Under the pieces are notes generated by a model, which worked only from the letters and a program-made list of their open reading frames with translations, ran no database searches and had not been told where the DNA came from. Shown here in pieces: positions 2,171-60,495 of a DNA stretch of 64,000 nucleotides; position 1 is the first letter of the stretch, and every line of letters starts with the position of its first letter. The stretch is taken from contig AP026125.1 in assembly GCA_030295235.1 (NCBI GenBank), positions 1,860,001 through 1,924,000 on the forward strand. Direction: 5' to 3'. The position numbers and the translations under genes were made by a program. This stretch comes from Fistulifera solaris. Lineage: Eukaryota.

Positions 2171-5100
2171 TTAGAAGCTTACAAATCCGTATCGATCCGA
2201 TCCCTTGGACATAATTGATTGAGAGCTTCCTCCAATAATACTGTCTGCAATGATTTCCGAATCCAAGTTAGGGTCGAATTGATTCTGACTGTTGACATCG
2301 CCCGATGATTGAAGTCCTTGAATGGCCGATTCATCGGAAGCGAGACAAAGTTCTTTTTCAATTGAAACTACCATGGATCTATAGCCACCGCTAGAAAAAT
2401 AATTTTCTTGTGTACACTGTTTTAGCCAACGGGGGAATCCATTTTGAAGTATCACTTGCAAGCTTGGTTGAAGCGCCTTCACTAAACTTGTAAAAGACCG
2501 CTGTAATTCACTTTGTACTGCAATAGCGGAGTCGGCACGAACACCTGCAGGAGCGGAAAGATTTGAGTGAACAGAATTCAGATCTTCTGATAAAACCTTT
2601 TATGGTGACTCTGCGGATTTTGCTTGCTGTTAGAATCTTCCGAGGATTTCGCTGCATGCCTACGTTGTCCAGTGCTAGAACTAGCTGAAGGCTGTCGAAA
2701 ATGCGGATCTTGACCTGATAAAGAGCCCGGTGTCGTAATACCAAATCCTCCCGAACTTGTCGACCCTGTGCGCATGTGCTCTGCTGAGGACTTGTTATTT
2801 GCTTTCGAGATACTTGCAGTTGCAGGAGCTTTCTTGTCACCGTCACGGGGTTTCCTCTCCTGAATGATTTCGAGTAGAGCGTTACGGTTTCGAGCAATTA
2901 GAACGTGCAAAAGCTCAAGGAACACCACAATCAGTTTGGCAAACTTAATCTGAAGTTTGTGGATCTCATCTTCCGCGTGTCGATCAAAGTTGGTAAGGAA
3001 AATGGCATCGTCATTTTCCTGTTGGGGCTCTGATGTGTTTCGTAGTAATGAAAGCCCCATTTCTTTGATATGGCTTGAGTGAATACTATCCACCACAACC
3101 TTTGCTGCTTCTGTGCCAATTCCGGGATCCGCGTTGATTCCAAGAACGGCCGTGCCGACAGTCGCCGCAGCTGTCCTGAATAAGAGCGAACACCACTGGC
3201 TGACAGCATCGATACCTGCTTCAAGGGGACTTATCGAGTAGACGAGCCGGTGGACGACGGGTTGTCTTGCCACGCATGTTGGAAAGGGCTGACTAACTTG
3301 AAGCTGCGTTACCTTCACACTCTTCTCAACTATGCCGGCGGTCGTCGATGTTTTCCACCAATCCTTAGAACCTTTGTGTCGGTCCCGCGGTTGCAGAAAA
3401 CAAAATCTATCCACGCCGGTCGAGTGACCTTCGCGAGAGCGTGAAAAAACTGTATTATGATTGTGAGCTTGCCCACCTACGCGAATCCCAGCAGCTGGGT
3501 CGATGGAGCTGAAGACATTTACAGTGAAACTGCGACTGTGTTCGCGATGATGAGGATCGTTCTTGTCTTTGTTTCCAGAATACTGCGTACCAGAGCGTCG
3601 GACGTTTACCTCTCCTCGCAACAAATGAGTCGGGCTTGCTGAAGCGTCTTCAACGTAGTGATAAAACCACTCCGGTAGTCCTCGTGCTAGTCGTTTCTTT
3701 GAGAATAACGGCCGCAGAGGCGTTACTTTCACTTTAACGGGAGCAAGTGGCGCTGGTCCAATGCGACCGTAGTTGCCAAAATTTGAAATCCCTTCTTCAA
3801 CTCTCTCTTCGACTCTTCCGTCTAGTACAAGATGAATTGGGGTGTTTTCTTGAATGATCGATTTCACGGTTTGCTTCAGCTCTGCACCAAACTTAGCAAG
3901 ACAAAAAGCGGCTTCGGCACGGTAGACAAACTCCATTCCTGTCAACTCATCTGGTGCTCCGCCATGAAACCAAACACGATAAAATCTACCCAACGTCGAC
4001 GTTACTTCCTGGGGCACATCTGGGTCTATGGTTGGCACTTGAGTCACGACGGCTCGAGAAAAGATTTCCATATATGCTTTGTAGCCTGTTGTAATTAAAT
4101 CTTTCTGCATAGTATTGCGCCGCTAGGTTCCAAGCAAGCCGGCTATTATCAATAATACCGGCCTTGAGAAAAAGCTCTCCTGCAGCTTCGGCTTCCTCGA
4201 CCATATTTTCTTCCATTTGCTTTAGAGATAGCCATGACTTTACTGAGTGATATTCTGACGGCAAGGCAACACCGCAAAACAAAGTTTTGGTGGAAGCGAT
4301 GTCCCAGTATGAACTGTTTGCGCCTTCACCGACAGAATTCGCGACGCGATAAAACATTCTCCGAGAAGAAACGTTCCCCATTGTCGGTCGGCCGAATAGA
4401 GATTCGCCATCATCTAAATCTAGATCTGATTGGTAGTTCTCAGAACCACCGTTTGCATATCCCGGATCTAAAAGGTTCTCTGTCCAAGGAAGAAAAGGGG
4501 TGTTGGTCCAAAGTGAACCGTGTAAAACAGCTGCCCTGGACAGAGTGATGTAAATTTGAAAATGACAAGTTGCTTCTTCAGCAAATTTTTTCTGTTCGCA
4601 TGGAGTTCGGCAAGCACTCTCAGCCAAGCACAGCGATGCTCTGGCAGCTCAGTAGGAGAAAACACATCCGCAGCATCCAATAACGCATCTTCGACAGCCT
4701 CGTAGTGTGCGACGCCAGAGTTATCCTGTCGGGTCCCCTGAAACCCGAGAAACTGCTTGCTGTGTCCACTGGATGCGTTCACCACTCGCATTATGCTAAT
4801 ACGAGCCGCTCGAAGTTTGGATTCTGTTTCGAAGTCTAATTCCTCAGTACGGGCTTCGTCGCCGTCGTTCCGCAGTAGCGACAGAACTCGGGTGGCGATG
4901 TATGCCCTGTAAAGAATTTTGAGTTTGCCTGCCATGCGAATCAATGCTTCCCTGAAAGCCACGTTCTGACTAGCTGGTTGGGTTTCCATTCTGTCTAGTG
5001 TACGCCAAAATGGAGCAAGGCTTGCTTCGGCACTGACGGAGGGGAACGGCTCAATGGCAGAATTATTAACAGTCAGTCGCTGCTCACGATAGTAGCGCGA

Positions 5101-8100
5101 CGCCGCAGTGGCAAAGATTCTCTCCATGACCTCCGTTTGAACGGCAAGCAGAGGAACACGAATTCGGAAGAAACTTCCAAAACATTCCCACGTAGTTCTT
5201 AGGATTAGTTCGAGCAAATCTGTCGACTCAATTCTCACACTTGCACGTCGGGCGCCACAGTGGAGAAGAATGACTCGCATCCAGTGTTGCAGTGTTTCTC
5301 CAACCGCCTCAAGGAAATTACCTATTCCGAAGATCTTTATCACCTCGGCTGAAAGTGAGAGGGTCCTGATTGTGACGAGGTCACTCTCCTCCAGGAAAGG
5401 GCGTGAAGGTAGACTGAGGTTGACGATCTGACAAAAAGTAAAACATCATCGGAAGTCAGTTTGAACGGGTCATTCTGCGTGAAATTTTCCCCTGTATCTG
5501 CGTCCGCTTTTGTTTGTCCGCTTCTGCTCCGATGCACAGCAGGATTTAAAAAACTGATGCCTTTTGGTGACTTTCGCATCATTCCATACATCTCGAGAAT
5601 AATGTGGTGAACAGTGTTCACAATGACCATGGCTGCATCGTGCCCTTGCCACCGCCGTGCTACAGAGCTTGTAAGTTTATGTCTAGGGGCTCGTCTCCTT
5701 GACCAGTGTTACCCCAACTATCAGAATTTGCATTAGAAGTCCGATTCATTGGTGACAACAAATATTCGCGACGCCAAAGTTCAACAATTTCCTGGCACTG
5801 GCTAGTTTCTTCGGACTCGGCATACTCCTCTCCTTCGAATTCAAGGGTCTTCAGTGCTAGATTGAGCATTGTAAACATATCAACGATACTGTTCTCGCTT
5901 TCATTTGCCATTTGATCTTCGCCCCCCTCATGGCTGAATTCTGGGGAAGATTCGCTTTCGAAGCCAACAGACATCTTGGCAACGATGCCGTACTTCGAAG
6001 ACTGCCCTCTGCCCTGAAGTTTATTACAGAGATCTCGATAGTAAATCCGTAGTAATCCAGGCGTAGCCCATTGAAGAACGTAAACAAAGCATGGGAGAAG
6101 ATGTTTTCGCAGTGCATTTTTCGGAGAGAAGTTGGACAGATAGCTTCCCTGCATCAAAAGCTTTTCCAAGAGAGTAAAAAACATAGTAGCAACTGGAGTT
6201 CTGATCCCATTGTAGATACTCTCTTGGCTGCGACCACAAATAAGTTCATGAAGTAGAGATGCTGCTCGTTGCTGAATGTGTGTCTCGACATGCTCCGTCC
6301 CTTTCAAACATACATCAACGAGTAGTTCAACTAGCCAGTGGGGTCGCATTGAAGGAAAAGCACCGTCGGTAGAAGTGATAACACCGAGTGTCTTGAATTG
6401 TGTTACCAAGCCAGAATTGAAAAACTTTTCGTCCATGCTCATAGATGGGATCTCCCACCATGCTCTCCAATTCAGCATGTAGGGGCTATTAATCTTGATG
6501 AGATCAACAAAACGAATCAGTGCCGTCGTTGCGTCAAGACGAAGTTTCGTGGTTTCCCACGAGCAGCGAAGACCGACTTTTGAATCTCGATCTTGGATAT
6601 TCTCTTTGTCCAGGAATCTTGAAAAATAGGTTAGGATAAGTCTATGGACACATGATGGTGCAAGGTAACTGAACATGTCACGCACGAAGAGAATAACTGA
6701 TTCATTGACGTCAACACTTGTCTGGCGAAGATCCCAATCATCAAAATTTCTTTGGTCAAGACAAGCGTCAGTCAAAAGGCCTATAATTTGTTCCAGTGAA
6801 GCCATTAGCGTCTCATCCAGTATTATCAATGGCGGGGTCGTCCAATCATCTTGCTTTGACAATATGTCGCGGAATAATGAATGAATTCGAAAGCCAAGGC
6901 TCTGCTTAATCACTTCAAGTAACACTGGAGCTCCGGCTACTAGAATACTACTGCAACCTGAGAGTGGGGGAGGCAACGATTCTTCAGCATGCAGTATCGA
7001 TAACAAGGAACTCCCATTCTCCAGTGATAATCCCCCAACAGCAGCCCCAGAGTGCTTTTGCTCGACCAGGAAATACGACCACTGGCATATGATTATCTCA
7101 TATACGTAAGGAAACCAGCGAGCAGGCTTGTTTGGGTTTTTGCCCATCGCAACCAAACGGTCAATGAAGTTCGGAACGGGTATACTCGAGAGTTCTTCTT
7201 TACAGAGCATAGTCATCTTATCAGCCACTTCCCGAGAATCGTCATGTTGCACACTCAACGAATCATCATTTAAACCGGAGTTAAGAGCGTCCACCCCGTT
7301 TAAAGTCCAGTCGATGCTTGACCGACTACGAATCCGGCGGTGATTCCTTGATGCAGTTCGACTAACTTCGCCCGAGTCTGTTTTTTGGGAACTAGATCGT
7401 GTTTATAAAGAGATATAAGGCGATTCAGCAATATGATGTATGCAGCTTACTCAGCGTGGATCTTACCTAGCTTTGATGTTCTCTCCGATAGCATCAAGAA
7501 AACCTATATTCAGTTTTTCAAAATCATCATCGTTTGGGGGAAATGGATTCAAGCACTTTTCCTTTTCGTTCAAAGAAGACGAGGTAGTTACTGAAGGGTC
7601 CATGCCTTCTACCAAGGAGTCTGGGTTGGATTTGTTTGTCACCAGTTTCGGATTTCGCCTAGCTGGGATCCGCATTTGACGCACACCGTGAGCGTGCTTT
7701 TGATTTGCAGGGTTGTTTGTGAGAGAGTTCTTTGTCCCGATGGCTAAGTCAGCGCCCATGTTGTCTTGTTCCTCCTCCTCATATTCCGGGTTATCGTCTT
7801 CTCCGTCATCGGTTTCTGATATTGTCATCAGCGTTCTCGGAGCGGGCAACGTCATATAACGGCGACTGCTAGCATCAGAAAGACTGGATAACGCTTGCAT
7901 CATCGTCATCGACGCCCCTGATGTTTTAGTGCTCTGAAGTTTGTCAACATCGTCTTCAGAATTGTCGGCCAGAGAAGCCCGGAGAGCATTTTGAAAATCA
8001 ACTTTAGAATCGATTCTTACGTTAGCACCATAAACAAACGGCTCATTTGATGTGCCCTTGAGACCGTCAGATGAATTGTTTCGTTCATTCAATCCGCGAA

Positions 8101-11100
8101 CCGGTCCCGCTAAGGCCCCCGCCACTGTTGAAAGAAAATCATTATCTCGAAACTCAGATGTTGTGTTGCTTTGTTTAGCACGATTGGAAAGATCTAGGCG
8201 ACTTCGTACATGTCGACCTCCATGAGGTTTCGCTTTCGCCAAAAAACTAGATTGGTGATCTCTAGAATCAAGAATTAATGACCAGTTGTCTCGATCAATA
8301 GCTTCTTTTGACTGATCACCAAACAGGCTTCTTTCATTGAACAGTAGCGATATCACACGGCCGAGATTCGCCCTATTCCACTTCCGCATACCGTCAGCCT
8401 CCGTCACACCGTTCTTTGAAAAATAGACGCATGTGCCTTCCAACAAATGCAAAATTGCGGCGAATGAGTGTAGTCTTAACGGGATTAACGACGCAGGATT
8501 CGACCAAACTAAACTGGCTTCACCATGTCCCAAAACAAATTGTCTCCACAAGGTCGGCAGTATTCTGAGGATAAAGGGCGAGAATGTCGGCAAAGAGCGG
8601 TTCATACTAGACGATGTGGTCAAAGTAGAATTCACAAGATGAGTCTCTAATGTGTCATCTTTTTTTGGTACGGCCTCTAGTGCTTTTCGCAAAAGCGACT
8701 GCCTGTTGATTTTGATATCCGAGAAAAATTTCGTTTCCAGTCTATGCATGACGTTATCAGGGTAATCGGATTCCTCGTATAAGAAGTCACTGAGCGCTTC
8801 ATCTTGCGAATGAAGGGACGTAAGAGCGACGATACGAACCTTTGATGTCTGTTTAGAATAGTCCTGTGGGCATAATATCATATTTTTCAGAAAGCAACTT
8901 ACCGAGAGAGACATGGGTTCGTCTTCCGTAACGTTCGCGACGGCAATTGCTGAATCGGCTGCATTTGTAACAAATTCGTTATTGACGAGAACGGAGGGCC
9001 CATTGTAGATTTGTTCCGTTTGTAGAGACTTGGAACCCGAATCCTTGGCGAGGAGAAGAGTTGTTATCGAACAGCCCAACTGCTCACAAAACGTCTTCGG
9101 AACTGCTTGTGCTTTGTATACAAGCTGCACATCATGGATACCGTTGCTAACTAGGCGACCCTTTTCGGACAAAGGCAGGAAACCACAACTCAGTTGCTTT
9201 TGACATGAATGAAGTTCAGTTTCTTTTAACTCTTCAACAGGAGAAACGGAAGCCACTGCTTCTTTTGTGGGCTTCAAGACAGAAGCGTCCCGTTCAACAT
9301 GGTAAACAGTAAAAACGAGGGCAAGCGATGGGGTGCACTTGTCCTTTCTCTTTTCGCGAGATCCAGTGGCAATTTTGTCTTGAACTCGTCAATAAAATAA
9401 TGATGTGCCGTCGTCCCTCTCCGCGTAGCGCACGTCGTGAATGACTCAGAAATAAGAAATGGGCCACGCCTGTTGTTGTGAATCGAAGACCCTCGTTCCG
9501 GCAAGTGCGCGAGATAACCAAATCCATCCATCCACTCTAAATCGCGAACTTCAACTCCTAGCACTACTATATCTCTGTCACAGTTGTGAAGGATGCGGGG
9601 TTGAAAAATTAACTCGTTGTAGAATACCGTGTGGAAAAAAGGCTCTATGTCTTGGCCGGAAAAACGACCTTTCCGAGTCGCGCTACTTTCACTGGTTGCG
9701 GGAACCAAACTAAGCGGGATCGGTGCGAGTTCTTGAGCATATGAATTGGGTTTCGTTACGAATCTAACGGAGCTTTCGACTCTGTCACGGCCACCATCAA
9801 TCGTTGCTTCCGTAATTAGTCCAGGCAATACCTTAGCTGTTCGTACAATGAAATCCGATGACAAAGTCATCGGATTTTCATCTACATCATCACCCTCCCG
9901 CTTAACTTGGAGTTCACCAGTAAAATCTACAAGCCTATCTCTAGCCAATGAGCTTTTGTTGTCCACAGCATTCTGTAATATGGAGCACAAATGAGTAGAC
10001 ATGCGATGAACAATACAGTCAAACGCCCTGAACATACATGGATACCTAGATATCCGAAGTTTCTCATTACTAACATAGCGTTTCCACCATTGGTCATCAG
10101 GGCCGGACCTCCGATCCCAACTAGGCTGTGATTTGCCCTGTGAAAAACAAATAGTTGATAATTAGTACACTCTTTAGCAAATGGAGTAACGAGCGTGACG
10201 TACCTAGGATATAACATTGCCATAATATGCTCGATGATCTGTTTCTCTTCGCCGTTGAACTGAAATAAAGGGATTTGAACAGCTCTACTCATGGCAACAG
10301 CAGGATTTTCCGTACCAAAGACCTGAAGGAGTGGTACGACGCCAAATGCCACGGGCATCAAGAGGTGGCCGTGGCTAGATGAAGCCCTTTCTGCTTTCGA
10401 ACGTAGATGTTCTAAAGCTACGGCCTCACAATTCGGAACGAAGTAAGGTTCAAGGTCGCGTACGTCTGCCAGTACTTTGCGAACTATCAACACTGCGTAG
10501 AGGTTGGAAACATTGAAATTGGATGGAAGTGGGAAAATACCACAACGTGTACCTGTGAGCCTGTCGTCTGAAGCTTCCGATAAGGAATAAGGCCATAATG
10601 CACCGGAGCAGCGCGCGGCAACATCACCGTCTCCAACTACATCAAAGTATAAAGCCTCTGTCACTTTCGCACATCTCTGAAGATCAGGAATCGGAGAAGG
10701 GGTTGGATCATCTCCTGGTAAATCGGAAATTGTCTCAATGTGATAAATAGCAAGTGAACAAAAAGCGGTTCTATCTCTCCATTGAGGGATGGAAAACCCA
10801 CAGCTTGCGTGTCTATTTGAAGGTAACGGTAACCATGCGGTCGATCGGAGAGGTAGGGAAGGCTTTGTTCCACTGGCGTAGCAGCATGGAGATGAGACAA
10901 TGAAAGGTTATTCTCGCGCAGAACATCTGGACTCGGTTCCAGTCGAGTAAAAAGGGCTGGATTCCGTTTCTCAACAAGTGATGCTGGAGGTACATGAAGT
11001 TGCCTTCCAGCAACTTTCTTTTGTCTTCGAATGGAGTTCTTTGATTGATTGAACCAGCCGCATCTTAATCGCGACTGGCGCCGTTTCATTTTCGGCTCTT

Positions 11101-12841
11101 TTCGTCGTACTTGTACAGGCGACGCCCTAGATCTTCCTAAATCACTGGACTCAACGCTGCCTAGTGTCCGCTTCGTTTGAACAGATCCAGAATCTGAAAC
11201 TGACGTTTCTTTTTGAGTATTATTACCGCTTTGGCGTAAGATTGCTGTTCGAGAGTTCCAACTGTGGTTGTCGTCGGGGCGCGTCGCAGGATTGGGGCAT
11301 GCAACCGTACCGAAAAGGTCAGGTATAACAAATCGCTCGATTGTCTCTTGTGATCTTTTCAACTCGTTTGATCGAACTTGTTCTTCTCGTGTCTCATGAA
11401 TGCCAAGATCGGCCGAATCTGGTAGAGCCTTGTCGTCCGCAGCGAACAACGGCACGCACCCATTAGTCAATTCATAATTTGACAGCGGCCGAAGTCGAGA
11501 ACCATCTTCAGGAACTTGCTGCGACAGCAACCGTGATGCCTCAATTGGGATATCCGCAGTTCCACCTTCATCCATATCACCCGTTAGCAACGCAATAGCC
11601 TTACTCAGATGATCACTGATTCCAACCTGTTTTTTCATTTCGTCTTCATGCAAAGATTCGTCATCGCTATCTACCACCCGTCTTGTAAGCGACTGACTTG
11701 GGCGGAACGAACCACTTTTGCTTGATACGAATGTTCCTCCGTCACTTTGCGTCGCCCATAATGAAAACAATTCCATCTCATCTTTTGCAACCGGATCACT
11801 TCCTGGTCCATCCTCGGCAACATTGACTTCCTCTTCTTCAGACTGCGGCTGCTCTGCATCCTCAACTATATGTATACTTGATTGACTCTCTGATCTCGAA
11901 TGCTCTCCGGACCGATTTGTGGACTCATCATCTTGCCGAAGCCACATACTGAATAGTTGATTTTCGCTGACAATCTTGTCGGGTATGGTGTCTTTCTCCT
12001 CACGTATCGCCTGACTTTCTCCGACCCTTGGTCGCCTAAGATCCTTTTTCGACATTGTGGCTGGAGCTGTGAATGACCGAGAAACGATGGAGGGCTTGTG
12101 AACGGGCTCCGGACGGTCTTTCATGTACATTTTGACACGCTTGGCTCGTTCATCGTGACCCCAAACAGGCTGATACGTGGAAACAAGATCACTGCCAACA
12201 CACTCAGGTTCGTTTTCATTCGCAGCCTCTTTCATAATGTCGAGACCAAAGCCGAATACTCGAAGTGCCCCCACAACATTCCGAACAGCTGGAGGCAATT
12301 GATTCAAACGCGGCTTGATTCCTGGATTTTCTTGTTGAAAATCATCAATAGCTTCCCGTAGCATTGAGCGAGCTTCCTTTATGACTCTAGGAGGTACAAT
12401 GGGACCGAAGAAAAGAGGCCGATGCATCTCCACTTTTCACAAAACATGGAAATATCGTTCTCTGGTTTGATTCTTTGCGGGTTGCGTTTCGTGGAATTCA
12501 CCGATCCTTTTACATCCGAAGGGACCTTGGGCTTTGATGATGTCTTTTCTACAACGGGTTCACTCAGCAGCGCAATTGCTGCATTCAAATTCGATTGCTC
12601 GGCTTCCAAGCGGTGCTTGGCGTTCTCCCCCTGGAGCCGGAAATCGCAAAGACCCGGAGCCGGCAGTAGTTGTGTTGTCGACAAAGGCGTCTAAAAATGC
12701 GTTATCTGCGGAAGTCATATTGTTCGTAGGTGTAATGTTCCCTGTCATTGCATCAGAAGTAGAAGGCGATTCACCTTTGACACCCACAGCCATGGCGGCA
12801 AATTGATTGATCTCCTTCTGCCGCGTATCCTCTTCTGTCAT
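2171..12841 (-). CDS. Very large DOCK-family (Zizimin/DOCK-C/D-like) guanine nucleotide exchange factor, multi-exon, broken by several frameshifts
   Basis: Chain of minus-strand ORFs with a C2/DHR-1-like segment (HTVFYNELIFQP...FIDEFKTKLPLDL) and DHR-2 motifs (SPTELPEHRCAWLRVLAELH, GRFYRVWFHG...EFVYR, PFPTCVARQPV, SPLEAGIDAV). Introns include 8840-8902 and 10138-10203. Exact exon structure is uncertain. Confidence 0.8.
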
Positions 12842-13540
12842 AATTATTACACTCTGTCGCACTTAATAGCTGAGTCCCTAAAAGCAGTTAGCAAGAACTT
12901 ATTATTGTGGGACGCTCTAATGTTGTTATTCCTTGTACATTCAACACAACAACTCTCTCGTTTGACGAATGAGCGCAATGAGCGCACAGCACCGCGTGCA
13001 CTGAGCCTGCACGGAGGATCTACCTTACCAGTATTAATCCTTGCTTCCCGCCGGTAAAATGTTTCGCGTGACTGCGACAGTCAGTCTTGTAATCATTGTT
13101 CCGATACACTTTGATCGAGAGTCAAGTGCGAAGGTAGCGACACTGAACGGCTGTCGACGTCAATGATCGTTGTGTAATTTTAAGATTGAATTCAAAGTGG
13201 CTTTCAGCAGATTTAGCAAAACATTTGATGGAGGGAAACTTATGAAACGATGGGGTTGTGAAAACACAAGAATGAGGAATATTCAGATTTGGCTCGTGAC
13301 AGAAAATCAGTCTTGAAAAAGTAATCTACACTTTTACTTACAGTAAATGCCAAAGGGGACGACAAGAGAATTTCAACTAAATAAAATACAATAAAATGTC
13401 GCAGTAGCAACTTGATGTTTTTACATTGCAAAAAGATTTTTTCGGCTTTCATTCGAACGAAACTCGAGGGTACCATCTCTTTGTAATCTGTAGTATTCAT
13501 TCATCACCTTTGTCGATCTACTTTTCTAGTAAAAGACATC

Positions 13541-28449: not shown

Positions 28450-30530
28450 ATGAAATTCCAATTCAACATGTCACTGTTAGGGCTCATGGCTTCGATGGCC
28501 GCACGACGAGGCCTGGCGTTTGTGCCTTCGTTGACGACACGAAATGCGTTGACGAAAAGTAATCATCATATCAAGCCGTTGACGCGTCACTTCCTGTCGA
28601 CATTAGCACCGCCCACCGAACAATCGGAAGCGGAAGAAATCATTCAACTACCGACCAACGAAGACGACGAAGAATTATTGAAAATTCGTCACTCTTCCGC
28701 ACACGTCATGGCCATGGCGGTCCAGCAAGTTTTCCCGGAAGCGCAAGTCACAATAGGACCTTGGATTGACAACGGATTTTATTATGATTTTTATTTCCCC
28801 GACACAGTCGACAAAGAAACCGGAGAGAAGGTACCTTCGCGAAAATTGACGGAACAAGACTTGAAGGCCGTCAAAAAGAAATGGACAAGATCATTTCCAA
28901 AGATTATCCCATTCGAAGAGAAGAAGTCTCGAGAGAAGAAGCGCGGCGACGAATTAATGAAATTGGTGAGCCATTCAAGTTGGAGATTCTAGATAGCATC
29001 AAGACGGAACCGATTACGATCTATCACATTGGCGAAGAATGGTGGGACTTGTGCGCTGGTCCTCATGTTGAATCGACCAGCAGTATTCCGAAAAAGGCGA
29101 TTAGTTTGGATAGTGTAGCAGGTGCTTACTGGCGTGGTGATGAAAAGCGAGAGATGCTTCAGCGCATTTATGCAACAGCGTGGAAGGATCCTCAGCAACT
29201 CAAGCAGTACAAGAAAATGTTGGAGGAAGCGAAAAAGCGCGACCATCGAATGCTGGGAAAGAAACTTGACTTGTTCTCCGTTCAAGAGGAGGCTGGTGGA
29301 GGTCTTGTATTTTGGCACCCCAAAGGATCGAAAATTCGTCGTATGATTGAAGACTTCTGGAAGAATGCTCACGAGGATGCTGGATACGACATTGTTTACT
29401 CGCCCCATATCGCCAACATCAATCTTTGGAAAACATCGGGTCACTTTGATTTTTACCGTTCTGATATGTTTGACCAGATGGACGTCGAAAACGAACAATA
29501 TCAAATCAAACCAATGAACTGTCCCTTCCATTGCCTCATGTTCAAAGACGAGCTTCGATCCTACCGAGACTTGCCATTCCGATGGGCGGAACTGGGAACC
29601 GTATATCGGTAAGTCTATACAATATGTATTGTCGACGTGTCGTTTCATACCGCTCTCACTTCTATCGTTTCCAGTTACGAACGATCAGGAACTCTCCACG
29701 GATTGATGAGAGTGCGAGGATTCACCCAGGATGACGCACACATATTTTGTTTACCTGAACAGCTGGAAGATGAAATCGTTGGCGTTCTTGACCTCACCGA
29801 GCGGATCTTATCACGATTCGGCTTTGACAAGTATGATATCATGCTATCCACCAAGCCGGAGAAAGCCGTCGGGTCTGATGATATCTGGGAAGCTGCTACA
29901 AAGGCTTTAGAGGGAGCTTTGAAAAAGAAGGGATGGGAATATGGTGTCGACGAAGGTGGTGGTGCTTTCTACGGTCCAAAGATCGACCTGAAAATTAGAG
30001 ATGCTATTGGTCGTCAGTGGCAGTGCTCCACCGTGCAATGCGATTTCAATCTTCCAGATCGGTTTGGTCTAGAATATGTGAGCGCCGAAGGAACGAGAGA
30101 GCAGCCCATCATGGTGCATCGTGCTATCTTCGGCTCTATGGAACGTTTTTTCGGCATTCTCATTGAGAACTGCTCTGGTGACTTCCCTTTATGGCTAGCT
30201 CCAACTCAGTTCAAGCTTCTACCGGTCACGGACGCCGTTCATGATTACTGTAACGAAGTTGCGGCTAAAGCCAAGAAAATGGGCATTCGGGTAGAGGTAG
30301 ATCGTGGCTCTGAACGTTTGGCGAAGCAAATCCGAAATGCAGAACAGCAGAGAGTCCCTATTATGGCCGTCGTTGGAGTTAAAGAAATGGAAACGAACAA
30401 CTTGGCCGTCAGAAGCCGTAAGCTTGGCGACTTGGGTTCCTTCAATGTCGACGATCTTCTTTCGGAATTAAGTCGGTGTTCTGCAGCAGCAGAGGAGATG
30501 ACGATGCAGGGAGACAAATCAGCAGAATAA
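28450..30530 (+). CDS. thrS: Threonyl-tRNA synthetase, organellar (bacterial type); intron ~29609-29674; frameshift ~28880
   Basis: [52 protein letters not shown] and [11 protein letters not shown]. Presequence ending GLA-FVP. Confidence 0.95.
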
Positions 30531-33491: not shown

Positions 33492-33997
33492 TTCGTCGTT
33501 ATTAATTTTAATCAACTGCGTCTAGTACGCTCTCTCTTTCACGGAGTGCATTATTGCATTTCCTTGCATTTTGCCTTGCATTATTGCGCAACACGATGGC
33601 GAGCATTTTGAACGCACCTCGTCTCCAGAATCTCTGCAAGCAAAAAAACCTCACTTTCAGATTTTCTGGGTATCTGAAAACACCAAATTAACACACAGAT
33701 ACCCAGAATTATCGCTTGATACAAAATAAGGACACCTGTATTTTTTTTTTTTCTTTTTAAATAAAAAAAAACCTTACTATGAACCTTAATAGCATCGACT
33801 TATCCACGACTGCACTTCAGTCATGAAATGGCTAGGCTGATTTACTATCTGCGAGCGATAATGCTGCCTCTCTAGTCTACAATTCGTTCATTTAGCTTTT
33901 CTTCTTAAGTTCAATTACTCGTTGTGAAAATGTAATAGACTTTGTTAGCATTTTCAGAAAACACCTTGATGTTTGTAGGGCGAAAAGCCTGCGAACA

Positions 33998-34995
33998 TTG
34001 GTGCTCTTATTGCTTCGGTGGAGTTTCAAGTGACTGAAATTGTGTCGCGATCGTGTACAACCAACACTTTACCACCATAGTGAAAATCGCAGTCGACGAT
34101 ACGGATGCTTTCCGACGCAAATAGCTGCGCTTCGAATGAAGATGATAGATGATAGTTAATTCATATATAATTGGTATTTTCATGGCATTTGATTTTAAAT
34201 TTCGCGTTTTTGTTTGGGGACAACTTTGGTGTTTTCATTGCTTCGGTGGAGTTTCAAGTGACTGAAAATGAGTCGCGATCGCGTACAACCAACACTTTAC
34301 CACCATAGTGAAAATCGCAGTAGACGATACGGATGCTTTCCGACGCAAATAGCTGCGCTTCGAATGAAGATGATAGATGATAGTTAATTCATATATTATT
34401 GGTATTTTCATGGCATTTGATTTTAAATTTCGCGTTTTTGTTTGGGGACAACTTTGGTGTTTTCATTGCTTCGGTGGAGTTTCAAGTGACTGAAAATGAG
34501 TCGCGATCGCGTACAACCAACACTTTACCACCATAGTGAAAATCGCAGTCGACGATACGGATGCTTTCCGACGCAAATAGCTGCGCTTCGAATGAAGATG
34601 ATAGATGATAGTTAATTCATATATTATTGGTATTTTCATGGCATTTGATTTTAAATTTCGCGTTTTTGTTTGGGGACAACTTTGGTGTTTTCATTGCTTC
34701 GGTGGAGTTTCAAGTTTCAAGTGACCGAAAATGAGTCGCGATCGCGTACAACCAACACTTTACCACCATAGTGCAAATCGCAGTCGACGATACGGATGCT
34801 TTCCGACGCAAACAGCTGCGCTTCGAATGAAGATGATAGATGATAGTTAATTCATATATTATTGGTATTTTCATGGCATTTGATTTTACACTTCGCGTTT
34901 TTGTTTGGGGACAACTTTGGTGTCACCATTGCTTCGGTGGCGTTTCAAGTGACTGAAATTGTGTCGCGATCGCGTACAACCAACGCTTTACCAAC
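33998..34995. repeat. Tandem array of ~228-bp units, ~4.3 near-identical copies
   Basis: ATTGCTTCGGTGG recurs at ~34009, 34237, 34466, 34693 and 34928. Copy 4 carries a TTTCAAG duplication. Confidence 0.97.
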
Positions 34996-35458
34996 ATCAT
35001 AGGTCTAAGTCTCATGAATTAACACGTAAACATAGTATACACCCAGATTTTCTTGGTTTTCGTACAATTTTTGAACCTGAATCTCATTTCTGAAAACTAC
35101 TACGTAGGCTGATTTCGTACTAGTTGTGGTGCGGGTGACTGCACCGGTGATTCACGGTATTTATGTCTAGCTTTGAAATAGGTTTCTATGGCATCAATTA
35201 AATGAAAATATGTAGCTTTTTTGCTGATTTAGATAAGAAGTTAGTTAGACATGGCTAAAATCTTAAATTTTTTAGTCACGAGTTGTGTGCTAGTTTTCAG
35301 AAATAATTGAATTCCATGAAATCGAGTTTTCAGAAAGATTCCGCTCGCCATTACCTCGCTCGCAGCAGCCCTTTCTTATTGACACCGATCCATCATCAAA
35401 AGACAAAGACAAGGATTATTACTCATTACAATCCTTTTTGTTCACTTAAAGAACGGAT

Positions 35459-51770: not shown

Positions 51771-52136
51771 TTAGAAAAGACCGAACAACTTCTTCTTGGG
51801 GGCTTCTACCTTGGCGGCCGCTTTCACGGGGGCCTTCTTGGCGACTGGTGCCTTCTTGGCAGCAGGGGCCTTGGCAGCGGCTTTGACAGGTGCCTTGGCA
51901 GCGGCTTTGACAGGTGCCTTTTTAGCGGCGACGGCCTTGACAGGGGCCTTCTTCTTGGGCTCTTCGACGTACATTGTTTCGTTCTCGAACTCCCATGACT
52001 GTTTTCCTCCTCGGCTGTAGGCGTTGTTCAATCCGAACAAAGAAGTGCTTGCTCGCGATTGAGAGGAGGGTGCGAAAGCCATGCAGGCAGTGATCGCAAC
52101 AAGAAGAAGGAGAGTGGAAAGAATAGACTTGGCCAT
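51771..52136 (-). CDS. Small plastid-targeted Lys/Ala/Pro-repeat protein (121 aa)
   Basis: Signal peptide ending CMA-FAP, Ser-rich transit peptide, repeated KAPVKAAA units and a KKKLFGLF end. Confidence 0.85.
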   Translation of the reverse strand: MAKSILSTLLLLVAITACMAFAPSSQSRASTSLFGLNNAYSRGGKQSWEFENETMYVEEPKKKAPVKAVAAKKAPVKAAAKAPVKAAAKAPAAKKAPVAKKAPVKAAAKVEAPKKKLFGLF

Positions 52137-52500
52137 TTTAAAAGTGATAGATAAATTGCTTTTGTTATGAAAAGAAAAGTGAGAAGCGATTGTGTGGAGA
52201 AAAAGATCGTCCAACGGCGATGTAACGAGTGACGCAATTACTTTGTGACGTAAAGCAATCGCTACGTTGGATTTCTGAACACACGGGAAGCTCGCAACAA
52301 GCCACGAGCCACCAAATACGAAAACTACACCCCTCTCTCCCCGCTTTCCTACTTCATCACAGTGTTTCCTCTCGCACCCATCACAAAGATCGGCATTTGA
52401 TGGGGTCGAACAAGGGAAAATGTCCGCTGACTCACTCGACAGACTCGCCCGGCGCACCGGGAAAATGACGACGTCATACGTCATCATCGCACGGATCACG

Positions 52501-52756
52501 CACGTACTGTAAGGAAATTTATCGACAGACGAGAACCCGGATATTCATCAATCTCGAAGACTCCATTTTCCCGGTTGATTGTGCTCCAATGGCATCCCGC
52601 TTTCACAAATATGCATGATGCTTGTAATGCATCCAGTACTTACATCAAAATAGATTGAAATACGGAAAAAACGAAAGATGCAACGTTACCAAATGTCTAC
52701 GTAGATTCTACGTAGCATTCGTAAGGAAATTTATCGACAGAGGGGAACCCGGATTG
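52501..52756. repeat. ~213-bp repeat family copy (one full monomer plus part of a second core), inverted relative to the 18.4-19.1 kb array
   Basis: The reverse complement of 52692-52754 reads TCCGGGTTCCCCTCTGTCGATAAATTTCCTTACGAATGCTACGTAGAATCTACGTAGACATT, versus TCCGGGTATCCCCTCTGTCGATAAATTTCCCTACGAGAGCTACGTGAAAACTACGTAGACATT at 18570. Confidence 0.88.
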
Positions 52757-53120
52757 CACCGCATCATTATTTGCAGCAACTAAAAAGAATACCTTCTTTT
52801 TCATTCATTACGAACTCATTAAAACACACTATCACCCCATTAAGTTGAAGTTCTCGTCGCAATGCAATGTTTTGTGGAAAGTGGGATCTTCCTGTGATCT
52901 TCCTAACCGTGACGACGACCTCCTGCGATGATTCGAGTGCAAGGCGTTTGCTTCGGAGAGTCATGTTCCTTCGTCTGCAGCAATCAGCAAACATAACCGC
53001 GCATTTCGCATTGCTGTGAAGCAAGGTTTTATCTTTCATTTGCTTCGCTTCTACAAAGTTACAGCTTTCCTTTTCAAACTCCTCTTCGTAGCTATTTCGC
53101 GCAACAAAAGCTCAGTCAAA

Positions 53121-54722
53121 ATGTCGCGAACGACGGATCCTTATCTACAAATCGTTCGACGGGACCGGATGACACCACGGCAACAGGCTCTTGTACCCGC
53201 ACATTTGCCAAGATCCTTGACCTTGTATGAGTTCCGACAAGACCCGACACGTTTAGACGACATTAACTGGCAGGAATACGGTTCGATAGCGATCTGGAGT
53301 AGCAACGGGTCCGTCATTTTTATTATCGAAGATCAATACTTCAAACCTTTTGGGGACGCCATGTGCTTTTTTTTACTTAGCGATCGTCTGCGCGGCTCGA
53401 TTTACGGTGAAACGGATGCCGCGATTGCGGAAACGGCAACATTCTTCTGGTCCCTTCAGTATCCCGAACATTGGGGCGAAAATCACCTTCAAATTCGCTT
53501 AGGATTTGTTCCTCCTGGAAATTCTGAATTCGATTTCGCCGCACTTTTACCCGCGCAGCTCGAACAGATTTTAGACTCTACGCGTTTTATTACTTTGTCA
53601 GCAGGGACCTTTACGGCTGAGCAGTCCGTCATACTCGCAACACGACCCTATCCCTTAAACATAGTGTTGAGTGGAAGATTTACGTTTGTTGACCAGGGAA
53701 CCGCATTTGTGCATGCGCTGCAAACACGCGAATCGCCTTTCGGTTTCCTCGAAGTAATCGGTCGAAGAAACGGGAGACCTTTCAGTGTTGAGAATTTGCA
53801 GCTACTATTTCAACTAAATTTCATTTTGGAGCACCTTCGGTGTCACATTGATGACGAAGAATGTGCTCTTCTTCCGATTTCCGCAAAGGTGAATAAGCTG
53901 CACTATCGGATGAGTACAAATTACGTTCGGCCGGATGATTTTGCTTCCATCGATATTGAAGCGAACGACTTTACTCTCGAATTGTCCGTGGATGGTAATC
54001 ACGAGAATTGGGACTCGCTTTTGATTGCAGCCCTTCATCGAGTAGCTGAGCTGGGTCACTTTGAACGATTATGCTTCTCTGTCTTTTCCGATTATCCTCG
54101 AAAAATGGGGTTTGACAGAGTGGCTCGAGTTGTTGATGCACTGATTCGTGCTATCCATGCAAATCCCAGTCTAGCATGTTTGGATTTGAGTAGCGATCGA
54201 CAGTCTGTACGTTGGTCTCCTCATTTCCAACCTCTTTTCCAGTCAATGGAAGAACACCCCGGACTGCGTACTTTTGTAGTGCAAAGCTGCACGCGTCGGG
54301 ATGAAGAGGTCTATAATTTTCATGAGCCTCTTTTTCAGTTCGACTTTTCCTGGTTACAGCAGCTCCTCTCAAGCAATCGACGCATTGCGGTCGTTGATCG
54401 TTCGGGTCAAATATGTTCGAATGGACCCGTAATCGACAGAATGTATCTACTCAACCGCTTCTATCTAGGCTCGGAAAGTCTTTTGCAGGAATTAACAGCA
54501 TCACGGCCGGCGTTGGTGCCGTCAGCGTTGGTCGACCGGGCTTCAAATAACGCTCAGTACATTGCATTGCTACTGTCGCATCACACCGACGTGCTGTGCG
54601 GGGTTGTTCAAGATTTCGATGTAGGAGAAGTGGCTAGTTTGCAATCCGTATCGGAAGGTGAGCCGTCATCAGGCACGCTGCGTCCAAACGCTTTGAAACG
54701 CGAAGCACCCAGTCACTTGTGA
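53121..54722 (+). CDS. Intronless hypothetical protein, RNI/LRR-like, lineage-specific multigene family member
   Basis: 533-codon ORF with IYGETDAAIAETATFFWSL and ALIRAIHANPSLACLDLS...MEEHPGLRTF. Resembles an expanded Fistulifera family (from memory, not verified). Confidence 0.75.
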   Translation: MSRTTDPYLQIVRRDRMTPRQQALVPAHLPRSLTLYEFRQDPTRLDDINWQEYGSIAIWSSNGSVIFIIEDQYFKPFGDAMCFFLLSDRLRGSIYGETDAAIAETATFFWSLQYPEHWGENHLQIRLGFVPPGNSEFDFAALLPAQLEQILDSTRFITLSAGTFTAEQSVILATRPYPLNIVLSGRFTFVDQGTAFVHALQTRESPFGFLEVIGRRNGRPFSVENLQLLFQLNFILEHLRCHIDDEECALLPISAKVNKLHYRMSTNYVRPDDFASIDIEANDFTLELSVDGNHENWDSLLIAALHRVAELGHFERLCFSVFSDYPRKMGFDRVARVVDALIRAIHANPSLACLDLSSDRQSVRWSPHFQPLFQSMEEHPGLRTFVVQSCTRRDEEVYNFHEPLFQFDFSWLQQLLSSNRRIAVVDRSGQICSNGPVIDRMYLLNRFYLGSESLLQELTASRPALVPSALVDRASNNAQYIALLLSHHTDVLCGVVQDFDVGEVASLQSVSEGEPSSGTLRPNALKREAPSHL

Positions 54723-54928
54723 TCTGCTGCAAAAAATCCAGCTTGCAAAATTTTTGAGAATTCTTCGATTTCTTATATTCAATCTGTTTCGGTTTCGTAT
54801 CCAAACTAGTAAAAACATTGTATTTAACAGTTTGGTTTTATTTTCTAGTAAAAAGTCCTATCCACGTTGTTGGTTCTTACTCTCGCGATAGAAGTCACTC
54901 GATATAAGCCACTAGAAACTGATTCAGA

Positions 54929-55043
54929 ATTGTGCTCAAATGGCATCATCGTTTTCACAAACATGAATTAAAGAGTGTAAAGAGGACCTATGTAATGTCC
55001 AATGCTTCAAAAAATAATGTTGGACACAGGGGATACCTAGGAG
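54929..55043. repeat. Degenerate remnant of the ~213-bp repeat family, same orientation as 52501-52756
   Basis: ATTGTGCTCAAATGGCATCATCGTTTTCACAAACATG matches 52578 ATTGTGCTCCAATGGCATCCCGCTTTCACAAATATG. GACACAGGGGATACCTAGGA matches the core end GACAGAGGGGATACCCGGA. Confidence 0.65.
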
Positions 55044-55099
55044 TCCAATATGTTTAAGACTGCTTTTCGCTGACTCGCTAATTCGGTGATCTGTTTTTT

Positions 55100-56293
55100 T
55101 TACTTCTTCGAAAGATGATAGGCTCCGAACGTGTCTTTGTCTTCATCAGTGTCCTGGAGACGCCGATCAACTTCCAGGAACGGAGGAAGATCAACTTCAG
55201 GCTCCGCTTTTCCTGAAGCTTCCACCTGGGCGTGTAAGATACACAGCCCTTCCTTGGGTGACTGAAAGATATGAACGACAAAGCTTTGCTTGTTGTACAA
55301 AAAGCTTATACGTCGCTGTTGTACTACATGACGACTCGTGTCACGAGTTGCCGATGTGGACATGTACTCTCGTTCAGATATTATGCGCTTTTGCTCGATC
55401 AGTTCTCCGTCTTCGGTCCACTGCGCCAGTGTAGATTGATACACACTACCGAGACGTCGACCGTCAGGATCAATGTTAGTTCGTCGTCGAATGAAGCTGT
55501 AGCTGCTTTTATCGTCGTGAATGTGCTTCAGATAGATCTTCTCAACTTCAAATTCTTTGTAGGCGATATCAGAAGGAAACTTCGAGAGATCAGGCTTGCT
55601 CTTCAGCAAGAATTTCGCCGATCGACGCTTCAAGTTGGATGGGAGACCGACAATCTTGCTCAATGTGTCTACCAAGCGTGACATTTTCCCCTCAAAATCA
55701 GTAGAATTATCGATGAAGTAAAAGTGCGGATGTCCTACCCATGCATTTTGTGTCTTTTGATCTACTTCACGTGCTTCTTCCTTCGTTTCTGTGCGAACCT
55801 TGTTGTTTTCAAGTGTATAAAAGGGCTCCGCACCGTCTGCAGCTGTTATGAGATGGAAAATAGCGTCGTATCGATTGTCACGAATTTGCACAATATTGGT
55901 GTCCATCTCGCTCAGCAACTCCGAAAACTCCTTCTGCGGCATGTACACACTCCCATCCATCGTCCCACGATCACAGAGCATGACTCCAGGTTTACCTCTT
56001 GCTTTTAGTACGCGATGAATACCATCTTCGAGTGCCATTTGAACTTCCAAAACGGTTCGCTGAATCACTTTGGGCATCCCTTGTGTCGAAAAGAAATCAA
56101 CATTCATGCCGTTGGAAGACAGCGTCGTATAGGCCTCCGGACACGTGATGCATTCAAACCCTCGCTCTCGCAAGTAAGAAAAGACTCGCGCGAGCGCAGT
56201 CGTCTTTCCACCACAGGGACCACCCGTAAAGACGAATCGGAAAATCGGAGGGCCGTCCGTGGCATTGAGGTTTCGTTCTGCTTCGGATAACAT
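55100..56293 (-). CDS. AAA_28 P-loop + CYTH domain protein (TRPL translocation defect 14-like)
   Basis: FVFTGGPCGGKTT, CDRGTMDG, RYDAIFHLITAADGAE, AWVGHPH, FEVEKIYL and FIRRR. Confidence 0.85.
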   Translation of the reverse strand: MLSEAERNLNATDGPPIFRFVFTGGPCGGKTTALARVFSYLRERGFECITCPEAYTTLSSNGMNVDFFSTQGMPKVIQRTVLEVQMALEDGIHRVLKARGKPGVMLCDRGTMDGSVYMPQKEFSELLSEMDTNIVQIRDNRYDAIFHLITAADGAEPFYTLENNKVRTETKEEAREVDQKTQNAWVGHPHFYFIDNSTDFEGKMSRLVDTLSKIVGLPSNLKRRSAKFLLKSKPDLSKFPSDIAYKEFEVEKIYLKHIHDDKSSYSFIRRRTNIDPDGRRLGSVYQSTLAQWTEDGELIEQKRIISEREYMSTSATRDTSRHVVQQRRISFLYNKQSFVVHIFQSPKEGLCILHAQVEASGKAEPEVDLPPFLEVDRRLQDTDEDKDTFGAYHLSKK

Positions 56294-59637: not shown

Positions 59638-60495
59638 TCTACTGATTTTATATTTCACTTATTGATTGATGATAATAGGAAGAGAACACGCAATAAAGAA
59701 TGTGCATTACATCGCTTCTTTCAAAATAATACGGAGTAAGAGAATGACCATGGCGACAAAGTCGCGCTGCGGGGTGTCTCTCCATGACAGAAATTCAGTC
59801 GCGCCGAAAACGGACAACAGTTTAGGGTTATAGTAAACGCCGCGCCGCAATTTTCATCGTGTTGTGAAGTGTAAATGTAATATAATGTGATATCAGGTAT
59901 TGCTGAGATTAACTTAATTGCTTGAATAGGAATAAAATCATCTCGGAGATGTGAGAAGCACAAAATCGAGCAAAGCTATATTTGATGATTCATGACTCAG
60001 ATTCAATCCTAAAAAAAGTAATCTACAGTTTGTATTATAGTAAAAGGACAAAGTGAACGGTCCAGAAGGAATTCGACATCAATACTCAAGATGTGAGCTG
60101 CAAACGTAAATTATCGTGACTTTAATCCGCGTGGAAAGCCTAGAAAGCAAAGCAATTGTTTATAGGGGAATTACACCATCACAGAGATCCGGAAAATACA
60201 AGAAGGAGCAAAAGAACTGTTTTGGCTTATGACTGAAATCTGAAATTCAGTCCTGAAATCGTGGAACCTACACTTCGATCCGCAGTAAAATGCTATACCG
60301 GTACGATATTGTATTATATACACTCATTCCCGCTTTATTCATTCTTCAACGCACGGCGGGCTGCGGCGGGGACGAGGATGCAGAGCATGAGATGTGACAC
60401 TAACTTTTGGATTTTTTTCTTGCAAACATTGTATTCAACCAAATGATAATGTCTTGCGTCCTTAGATAATCATTTTCATTTACATTTCCTAAGCT

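Follow-up and report, generated by a model that had tools for sequence, protein, structure and literature searches.

Integrons of bacteria are defined by a gene for a site-specific tyrosine recombinase and by attC sites that fold as imperfect hairpins. In gene capture by Helitrons and Pack-MULEs, the hallmark is the presence of host genes flanked by repeat-bearing DNA, and some Helitron families also have internal tandem arrays. Helitrons themselves end in 5'-TC and 3'-CTRR, carry a subterminal hairpin and insert between A and T. The locus considered here lies in a window of 64 kb (the whole stretch of DNA analysed, on its two strands) from Fistulifera solaris, an allodiploid pennate diatom. 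Within this window a gene for a leucine-rich-repeat (LRR) protein, FisN_4Hh191, is bracketed by pieces of a tandem repeat with a unit of ~213 bp. The initial annotation of this DNA described a cassette-like insertion, and proposed that capture mediated by the repeat, or carriage by a non-autonomous element, could be a route for expanding the gene's family. Gene capture guided by a repeat, if it existed in a diatom, would add a new route to eukaryotic gene-family growth; the evidence at this locus points otherwise. In F. solaris itself, tandemly repeated LPAAT genes are reported to have 'highly repeated elements' in between (available part of 10.1101/2021.11.10.468027). Within the available parts of the literature searched, which covered diatom satellite and tandem repeats, Helitron gene capture and LRR family expansion, no description of the ~213 bp repeat or of the locus was found.

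The arrangement is explained here, with moderate confidence, as a gene of ordinary, resident type that lies within what is left of a single old tandem array between genes, and not as a mobile cassette. The features that bear on this reading are as follows (ORF, open reading frame; aa, amino acids).

52484..52756, + strand: left repeat block, ~1.3 monomers, with cores at 52509-52542 and 52721-52754 and paired ACGT boxes at 52694-52716
52757..53120, + strand: 5' flank of the gene, 364 bp, with no repeat homology (score 16, shuffle mean 17.6, reached by 1698 of 2000 shuffles)
53121..54722, + strand: FisN_4Hh191, a single-exon ORF of 533 aa, predicted RNI-like LRR solenoid
54723..54928, + strand: 3' flank of the gene, 206 bp, with no repeat homology (score 14, reached by 1582 of 2000 shuffles)
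54929..54968, + strand: right-flank body fragment of the repeat, 85% identical over 40 columns to 52578-52616
54969..55022, + strand: degraded stretch, with a weak collinear match at 54990-55016 and ~63 bp fewer than the intact monomer
55023..55043, + strand: degenerate core, three edits from the A-type core
18372..19123, - strand: larger array, ~3.5 monomers with a 427 bp higher-order unit, between the 3' end of a kinase gene and the 5' end of the Efg1 gene

The 34 nt cores of the left block start at 52509 and 52721, giving a spacing of 212 bp on the + strand, and are 94% identical to one another. Profile homology to the repeat begins at ~52484 and stops at 52754-52756, directly 3' of the second core, which bears out the abrupt end at 52756 given in the initial annotation. 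Tandem Repeats Finder returned no entry at this block, because 1.3 monomers are too few. In the larger array the cores are spaced by 213-214 bp, and at both loci the copies lie head to tail at a constant period, as in a tandem or satellite-like array. Monomers were compared by pairwise and profile tests; a MAFFT alignment of nine sequences, monomers as well as flanks, was set aside, as it mixed unrelated DNA. Identity is 98% between monomers A1 and A3 of the larger array, 60% between A1 and A2, and 55-65% between the A and B types. The diverged monomers are best conserved over their last ~70 columns, where three-way identity is 60-75%, compared with 15-35% elsewhere. This block of ~70 bp holds two ACGT boxes ~12 bp apart and the core. 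Further ACGT motifs are present directly upstream of the left block, at 52460-52510. At the gathering score, Rfam identified only a 5S rRNA gene (15547-15665) in the window, and permissive scans of both repeat loci gave nothing at E<=1; an RNA gene within the repeat is thus ruled out as far as Rfam reaches.

For the right flank, the initial annotation had homology to the repeat resuming at 54929, and offered to give up its interpretation if this match proved insignificant in a proper alignment. Aligned and tested, the match stands. The right fragment has a Smith-Waterman score of 48, which was reached by none of 2000 dinucleotide shuffles of 54723-55099 (mean 18.6, maximum 30) and by none of 628 real tiles of 377 bp, taken on both strands from the remainder of the window (maximum 29). 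When the whole window is searched with nhmmer, the same fragment has E=0.029 if the left block is the query and E=0.27 if a four-monomer profile is used, values that are borderline taken alone. The fragment is 85% identical to the adjacent left monomer, whereas the left monomer is only 55-65% identical to the distant array, which fits a local common origin. As initially described, the right piece closes with a degenerate core (55023-55043); no other core-like site exists outside the arrays in the window, nor did any turn up in 50 shuffled windows.

The two flanking pieces share the + orientation and stand in monomer order, in agreement with the initial annotation. Two of its details survive in part. 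The stretch between the body fragment and the core, represented by TGTAATG..TCCA, is collinear with the repeat, but its significance when it stands alone is marginal, since 121 of 2000 shuffles reach its score. Resumption at the position expected for the next monomer is upheld in strand and order but not in exact phase, the match beginning ~35 bp too late for a clean insertion. The pieces are 2.2 kb apart, on one strand and in monomer order, with one other repeat locus in 64 kb, so that a shared local history is likelier than coincidence. In its simplest form, this would be the history of an old array interrupted by the segment with the gene.

Hallmarks of a mobile or capturable unit were sought in the segment 52757-54928 (2172 bp). 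The best inverted match between its first and last 60 bp is 5 bp long (score 10), and terminal inverted repeats (TIRs) are thus lacking. The junctions have ATTG in common and nothing longer as a target-site duplication; a 4 bp match whose register is freely chosen is weak evidence. Direct inspection of the segment ends revealed no 5'-TC or 3'-CTRR, as in Helitrons, in any register allowed by the ATTG overlap. When folded as single-stranded DNA, the left block (z=-0.11) and the right piece (z=-1.63) were no better than shuffles, giving no sign of attC-like hairpins. There is no A-run at the 3' end of the segment; a retrocopy would be expected to show a poly(A) remnant, a flanking duplication and loss of the introns of its parent, but the event would be old enough for a tail to have decayed. 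Recombinase, integrase, transposase and Rep-helicase families were matched by none of the 40 ORFs of the window scanned against Pfam (those of at least 150 aa, plus a neighbouring gene of 121 aa), and the initial statement that no recombinase or transposase is visible in the window holds. A heptamer, GCATCAT, is found twice, once inside each junction and within 15 bp of it. The idea that the left monomer might continue beyond the break was rejected, as the weak match adjacent to the junction (GCATCAT...) is equalled by 936 of 1000 shuffles. Taken together with the flank comparisons, the proposal that the gene was inserted into, or travels with, the array is retained as far as the bracket goes, with homologous flanks on one strand and in monomer order; its mechanism of capture or cargo is not, for want of TIRs, Helitron ends, a hairpin or a recombinase.

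The gene itself is intronless, as first annotated. The single uninterrupted ORF of 533 aa at 53121-54722 matches the 533 aa record FisN_4Hh191 with 99% identity over 100% of its length, and the 364 bp preceding it (52757-53120) are presumed to hold its promoter and 5' untranslated region. No Pfam family reaches the cut-off for this protein; no LRR model appears at E<=0.1, and a match to GAF_3 (E=0.027) is below the cut-off. An AlphaFold2 model built with 31 aligned sequences has a pLDDT of 84.6 and a pTM of 0.81, and in it strands and helices alternate from about residue 120 to 430, forming a predicted curved alpha/beta solenoid. In a Foldseek comparison with the PDB, the 11 best matches at E<=0.001 are all LRR proteins. 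The best folds are COI1, SKP2, NLRP7, NLRC4 and ribonuclease inhibitor (E=4.6e-4 to 1e-2, TM 0.23-0.37). Against PDB sequences, the family profile has its best match in radial spoke protein 15 (E=0.012). The nearest Atlas cluster (0.97) has 108 members and is diatom-only, and the clusters that follow carry LRR_6 and LRR_TMOD-LMOD. With the profile, 858 representatives are identified at E<=0.001; at the stricter threshold of E<=1e-30 there are 413. On the strength of the modelled fold, FisN_4Hh191 is assigned to a large diatom family of RNI-like LRR proteins, for which a role as a protein-binding scaffold is most plausible. Five family representatives (P0165, P0166, P0167, P0177 and P0186) are 975-1379 aa long and have two to four full-length profile matches each; they derive either from tandem genes that have fused or from gene models that run across adjacent copies. 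The G+C content at third codon positions (GC3) of FisN_4Hh191 is 0.457, inside the range of the window (mean 0.479, SD 0.040), so the gene is not compositionally foreign, and a foreign origin was rejected on this ground.

The closest relative of the gene is FisN_4Lh191, with 79% identity (395 of 498 residues) and collinearity from residue 1; the next relative is 52% identical, and the others 44% or less. The two names differ in H versus L alone, and the 'h' in them presumably stands for 'homoeologous'. According to the available part of PMC5935921, F. solaris has 9007 homoeologous pairs, which are syntenic copies on its paired chromosomes, and 2441 genes that occur on one chromosome only. Provided that FisN_4Lh191 is indeed the homoeologue, an empty site at the homoeologous locus, for which the initial annotation proposed a search, is unlikely. 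A collinear partner on the other subgenome would likewise mean that any insertion predates the split of the parental genomes, and the heavy decay of the right remnant fits such an old event. The median identity of F. solaris homoeologue pairs is given as 91% in the available part of 10.1101/2021.11.10.468027, in a passage that also holds DNA figures; set against this reported median, the pair is more diverged at 79% protein identity. The LRR gene appears to be fast-evolving.

Association between the repeat and the gene family was assessed over the window. There are two repeat loci (18372-19123 and 52.5-55 kb), one of which adjoins a family member. The larger array has no family member beside it, being flanked by the kinase gene and the Efg1 gene. 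LRR paralogues are absent from the rest of the window: all 44 tblastn matches of 43 family proteins fall at 53-54 kb, and no paralogous pairs were found among 37 window ORFs. Tandem arrays of all kinds occupy 2711 of 24794 non-ORF bases (10.9%), so that a random landing would fall in an array about one time in nine, with no special mechanism needed. Of the 43 family matches, 13 appear to be on a contig together with another family match. Four F. solaris members (including 10Lu412 and 10Lu413) would share a contig of 168,485 nt and three a contig of 9,173 nt, while contigs of 7,590, 8,576 and 44,926 nt would hold two members each. If these placements are correct, the family has grown mainly by ordinary tandem duplication.

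In the favoured explanation, the spacer between a gene for a Lys/Ala/Pro-rich protein on the left and an AAA_28 gene on the right would once have held a short array of the ~213 bp repeat. A 2.2 kb stretch of DNA carrying a copy of the LRR gene with its own flanks would have been joined in directly after a core, probably by break repair or ectopic duplication, for which the array may have been a passive, perhaps break-prone, target. The joining would have taken place before the two parental genomes of F. solaris diverged. Afterwards, the right remnant would have lost ~100 bp, including the best-conserved block, and the left part would have kept its 1.3 monomers. Several observations weigh against this account. 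At the junction, nothing corresponds to ~35 bp of monomer, those at 52543-52577 in the intact unit. The distance from body to core in the right piece is 94 bp, compared with 157 bp in the intact unit, so ~63 bp are gone, and with them the block in which the monomer is best conserved. If the flanks are joined, the cores come to lie ~116 bp apart, not 212 bp, and no full monomer is rebuilt. The right core resembles the A type, with its extra T kept, while the right body resembles the B monomer; this indicates that the remnant is not a simple sister of the left monomer. In addition, the syntenic position of FisN_4Lh191 is drawn from its name and from the general description in the available part of PMC5935921, and the data fit either order of events, a gene entering an array or repeat pieces arriving around a resident gene. 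A 34 bp slippage deletion between CCCGG sites at 52536 and 52570 was also tried. It would leave the core adjoining the 40 bp segment, with an ATTG overlap resembling a 4 bp target duplication; it needs an extra loss of 3 bp and lacks statistical support, and was not adopted.

The reverse order is the subject of a tentative alternative, possible rather than probable, in which the gene came first and repeat pieces later arrived or spread on both sides of it, with no insertion of the gene. Part of the left block could have been locally duplicated 3' of the gene, or a dispersed repeat could have seeded the spacer twice. The mismatch of the break points with a single insertion site (the ~35 bp absent) speaks for this, as does the mixture of a B-like body with an A-like core. 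It is also consistent with a dispersed repeat showing local turnover (A1/A3 98%, A1/A2 60%), with arrays being common in spacers (10.9% of non-ORF DNA) and with a gene that is apparently old at the locus. Each variant nevertheless meets a difficulty. With two loci of the repeat in 64 kb, it is improbable that another copy landed independently within 2.2 kb, with strand and monomer order unchanged (<0.05 by a rough, uncomputed estimate). Had part of the left block been duplicated locally, the conserved core block should have been included, yet it is missing from the right piece. The same lack counts against an unlikely third reading, based on sequence conservation, in which the ~70 bp block would be a cis-regulatory module under selection near gene starts and the bracket a by-product of regulatory DNA in gene-dense spacers. 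The ACGT boxes are presumably bZIP/bHLH-type sites, and the uneven identity (60-75% in the last ~70 columns, 15-35% elsewhere) speaks for such a module. Each array is found 5' of a divergently transcribed gene and is oriented away from it (Efg1 at 19313, + strand; the Lys/Ala/Pro gene at 52137, - strand). The left block is, in addition, 365 bp from the start of the LRR gene, on its upstream side, and no RNA family matches the repeat. The right piece, however, is placed between two 3' ends, and uneven conservation may equally arise by gene conversion or array homogenization. A regulatory block could explain the uneven conservation and is compatible with a split array as well as with a gene that was there first.

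A capture system, or a non-autonomous carrier of integron or Helitron type, that moves LRR genes as cargo and uses the repeat for recognition or as its termini is considered very unlikely. A complete gene with its flanks is indeed bracketed by same-orientation pieces of one repeat, ATTG is present at both junctions, and the available description of the LPAAT genes (10.1101/2021.11.10.468027) offers a parallel in the same species. These points are countered by the lack of TIRs, Helitron-like ends and any hairpin signal, by the absence of recombinase, transposase or Rep-helicase matches among the 40 window ORFs, and by the little that a 4 bp match in a free register can tell. The larger array has no cargo, the gene has a close partner named for the other subgenome and the right end is without the conserved block; moreover, the nearest paralogues are at most 52% identical, which implies that there are no recent copies. 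A more specific form is likewise very unlikely. In it, an undescribed system of diatoms for carriage or recombination would have the ~213 bp unit, with its conserved 70 bp block, as its active end and would place whole LRR-family genes into repeat arrays, leaving an old decayed product here and a young one in the LPAAT array. The split remains of an old array, with the gene joined into them, thus stay the favoured explanation.

The window as a whole has a G+C content of ~46% and is gene-dense. It carries ordinary nuclear genes, among them those for tubulin, a cyclin, PEX11, threonyl-tRNA synthetase, an FGGY kinase and 5S rRNA. The immediate neighbours of the locus are the following.

51771..52137, - strand: left neighbour, encoding a small protein rich in Lys, Ala and Pro that starts with a signal-like peptide; its transcription leads away from the repeat
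55100..56293, - strand: right neighbour, an AAA_28 (NadR/Ttd14-type) ATPase (PF13521, E=2.3e-24)

The left neighbour (51771-52137) matches no family in the Pfam scan. In its protein, a hydrophobic signal at the N-terminus precedes an 'AFAP' stretch; the Lys/Ala/Pro-rich body is repetitive and encoded by 18/24 bp DNA repeats at 51829-51920. We take the 'AFAP' motif to resemble diatom plastid-targeting signals. The stop codon of the AAA_28 gene is 57 bp from the degenerate core (55023-55043), and the best non-self match of its product is 94%. Another neighbour, an aldo/keto reductase, falls in a 90% cluster together with six other sequences.

Elsewhere in the window, the 5S rRNA gene (15547-15665, + strand; Rfam 101.6 bits, full length) is single and isolated among protein-coding genes. 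Mention of 5S genes at contig ends of the F. solaris genome is made in the available part of 10.1101/2021.11.10.468027. No tRNA genes were found in the window. Six successive ORFs on the - strand at 2578-12427, of 510, 270, 518, 483, 253 and 588 aa, match no Pfam family at E<=0.001, and show no paralogy to one another or to the LRR gene at E<=1e-3. Two genes are each represented by a pair of ORFs on the + strand, the FGGY carbohydrate kinase at 13541-14728 and 14745-15368, and threonyl-tRNA synthetase at 28881-29612 and 29706-30530; short introns are the likely cause. A further tandem array, with a unit of 228 bp (4.4 copies, 95% matches; alternatively a 463 bp unit), is present at 33994-34997 within a gene-free gap of 2.6 kb, and no similarity to it was found with the 213 bp monomer profile. 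A cluster of short arrays occupies the spacer between two genes, with 33/67 bp units at 22456-22672, then 52 bp units at 22703-23022. A 32 nt AT-rich direct repeat at 13316-13347 and 60013-60044 (84% identical, 46.7 kb apart) may well be a chance match.

Comparison with described systems sets the locus closest to an interrupted array. As in bacterial integron cassettes, related elements of like orientation stand on both sides of one gene. Unlike these, the locus has no integrase in the window and no attC-like palindrome or hairpin, the unit has its own upstream region of 364 bp, and the host is a eukaryote. Products of Helitron or Pack-MULE capture differ in having 5'-TC/3'-CTRR ends, TIRs or a longer target duplication, all lacking here, and no Rep-helicase or transposase is encoded in the window; the captured unit would, in addition, be a whole functional gene that is apparently old at its locus.

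The LPAAT tandem genes, as presented in the available part of 10.1101/2021.11.10.468027, come from the same genome and are likewise a case of repeats beside genes, with undescribed 'highly repeated elements' in the spacers of duplicated genes. That array is specific to one subgenome, whereas the LRR gene is single here and has a partner named for the other subgenome. At the protein level, the predicted alpha/beta solenoid is like that of RNI-like LRR proteins such as SKP2, COI1/TIR1, the LRR domains of NLR proteins and RanGAP/LRR_6; FisN_4Hh191 differs from them in that no Pfam LRR match at E<=0.1 and no F-box, NACHT or other partner domain was found in it.

The ~213 bp repeat, undescribed in the literature searched, occurs in two spacers of one chromosome and has one markedly conserved block. 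The locus is a good test case for the decay of short arrays and for the way in which genes come to lie within arrays, with the two subgenomes as a built-in comparison. Two traits set it apart from an interrupted intergenic tandem array of the usual kind: the arrays are very short (1.3 and 3.5 units), and a single block of 70 bp is much better conserved than the rest. In other respects the likeness is close, with head-to-tail units of 212-214 bp, a 427 bp higher-order unit, copies at at least two loci, homogenized copies alongside decayed ones, and a remnant on either side of a non-repeat segment.

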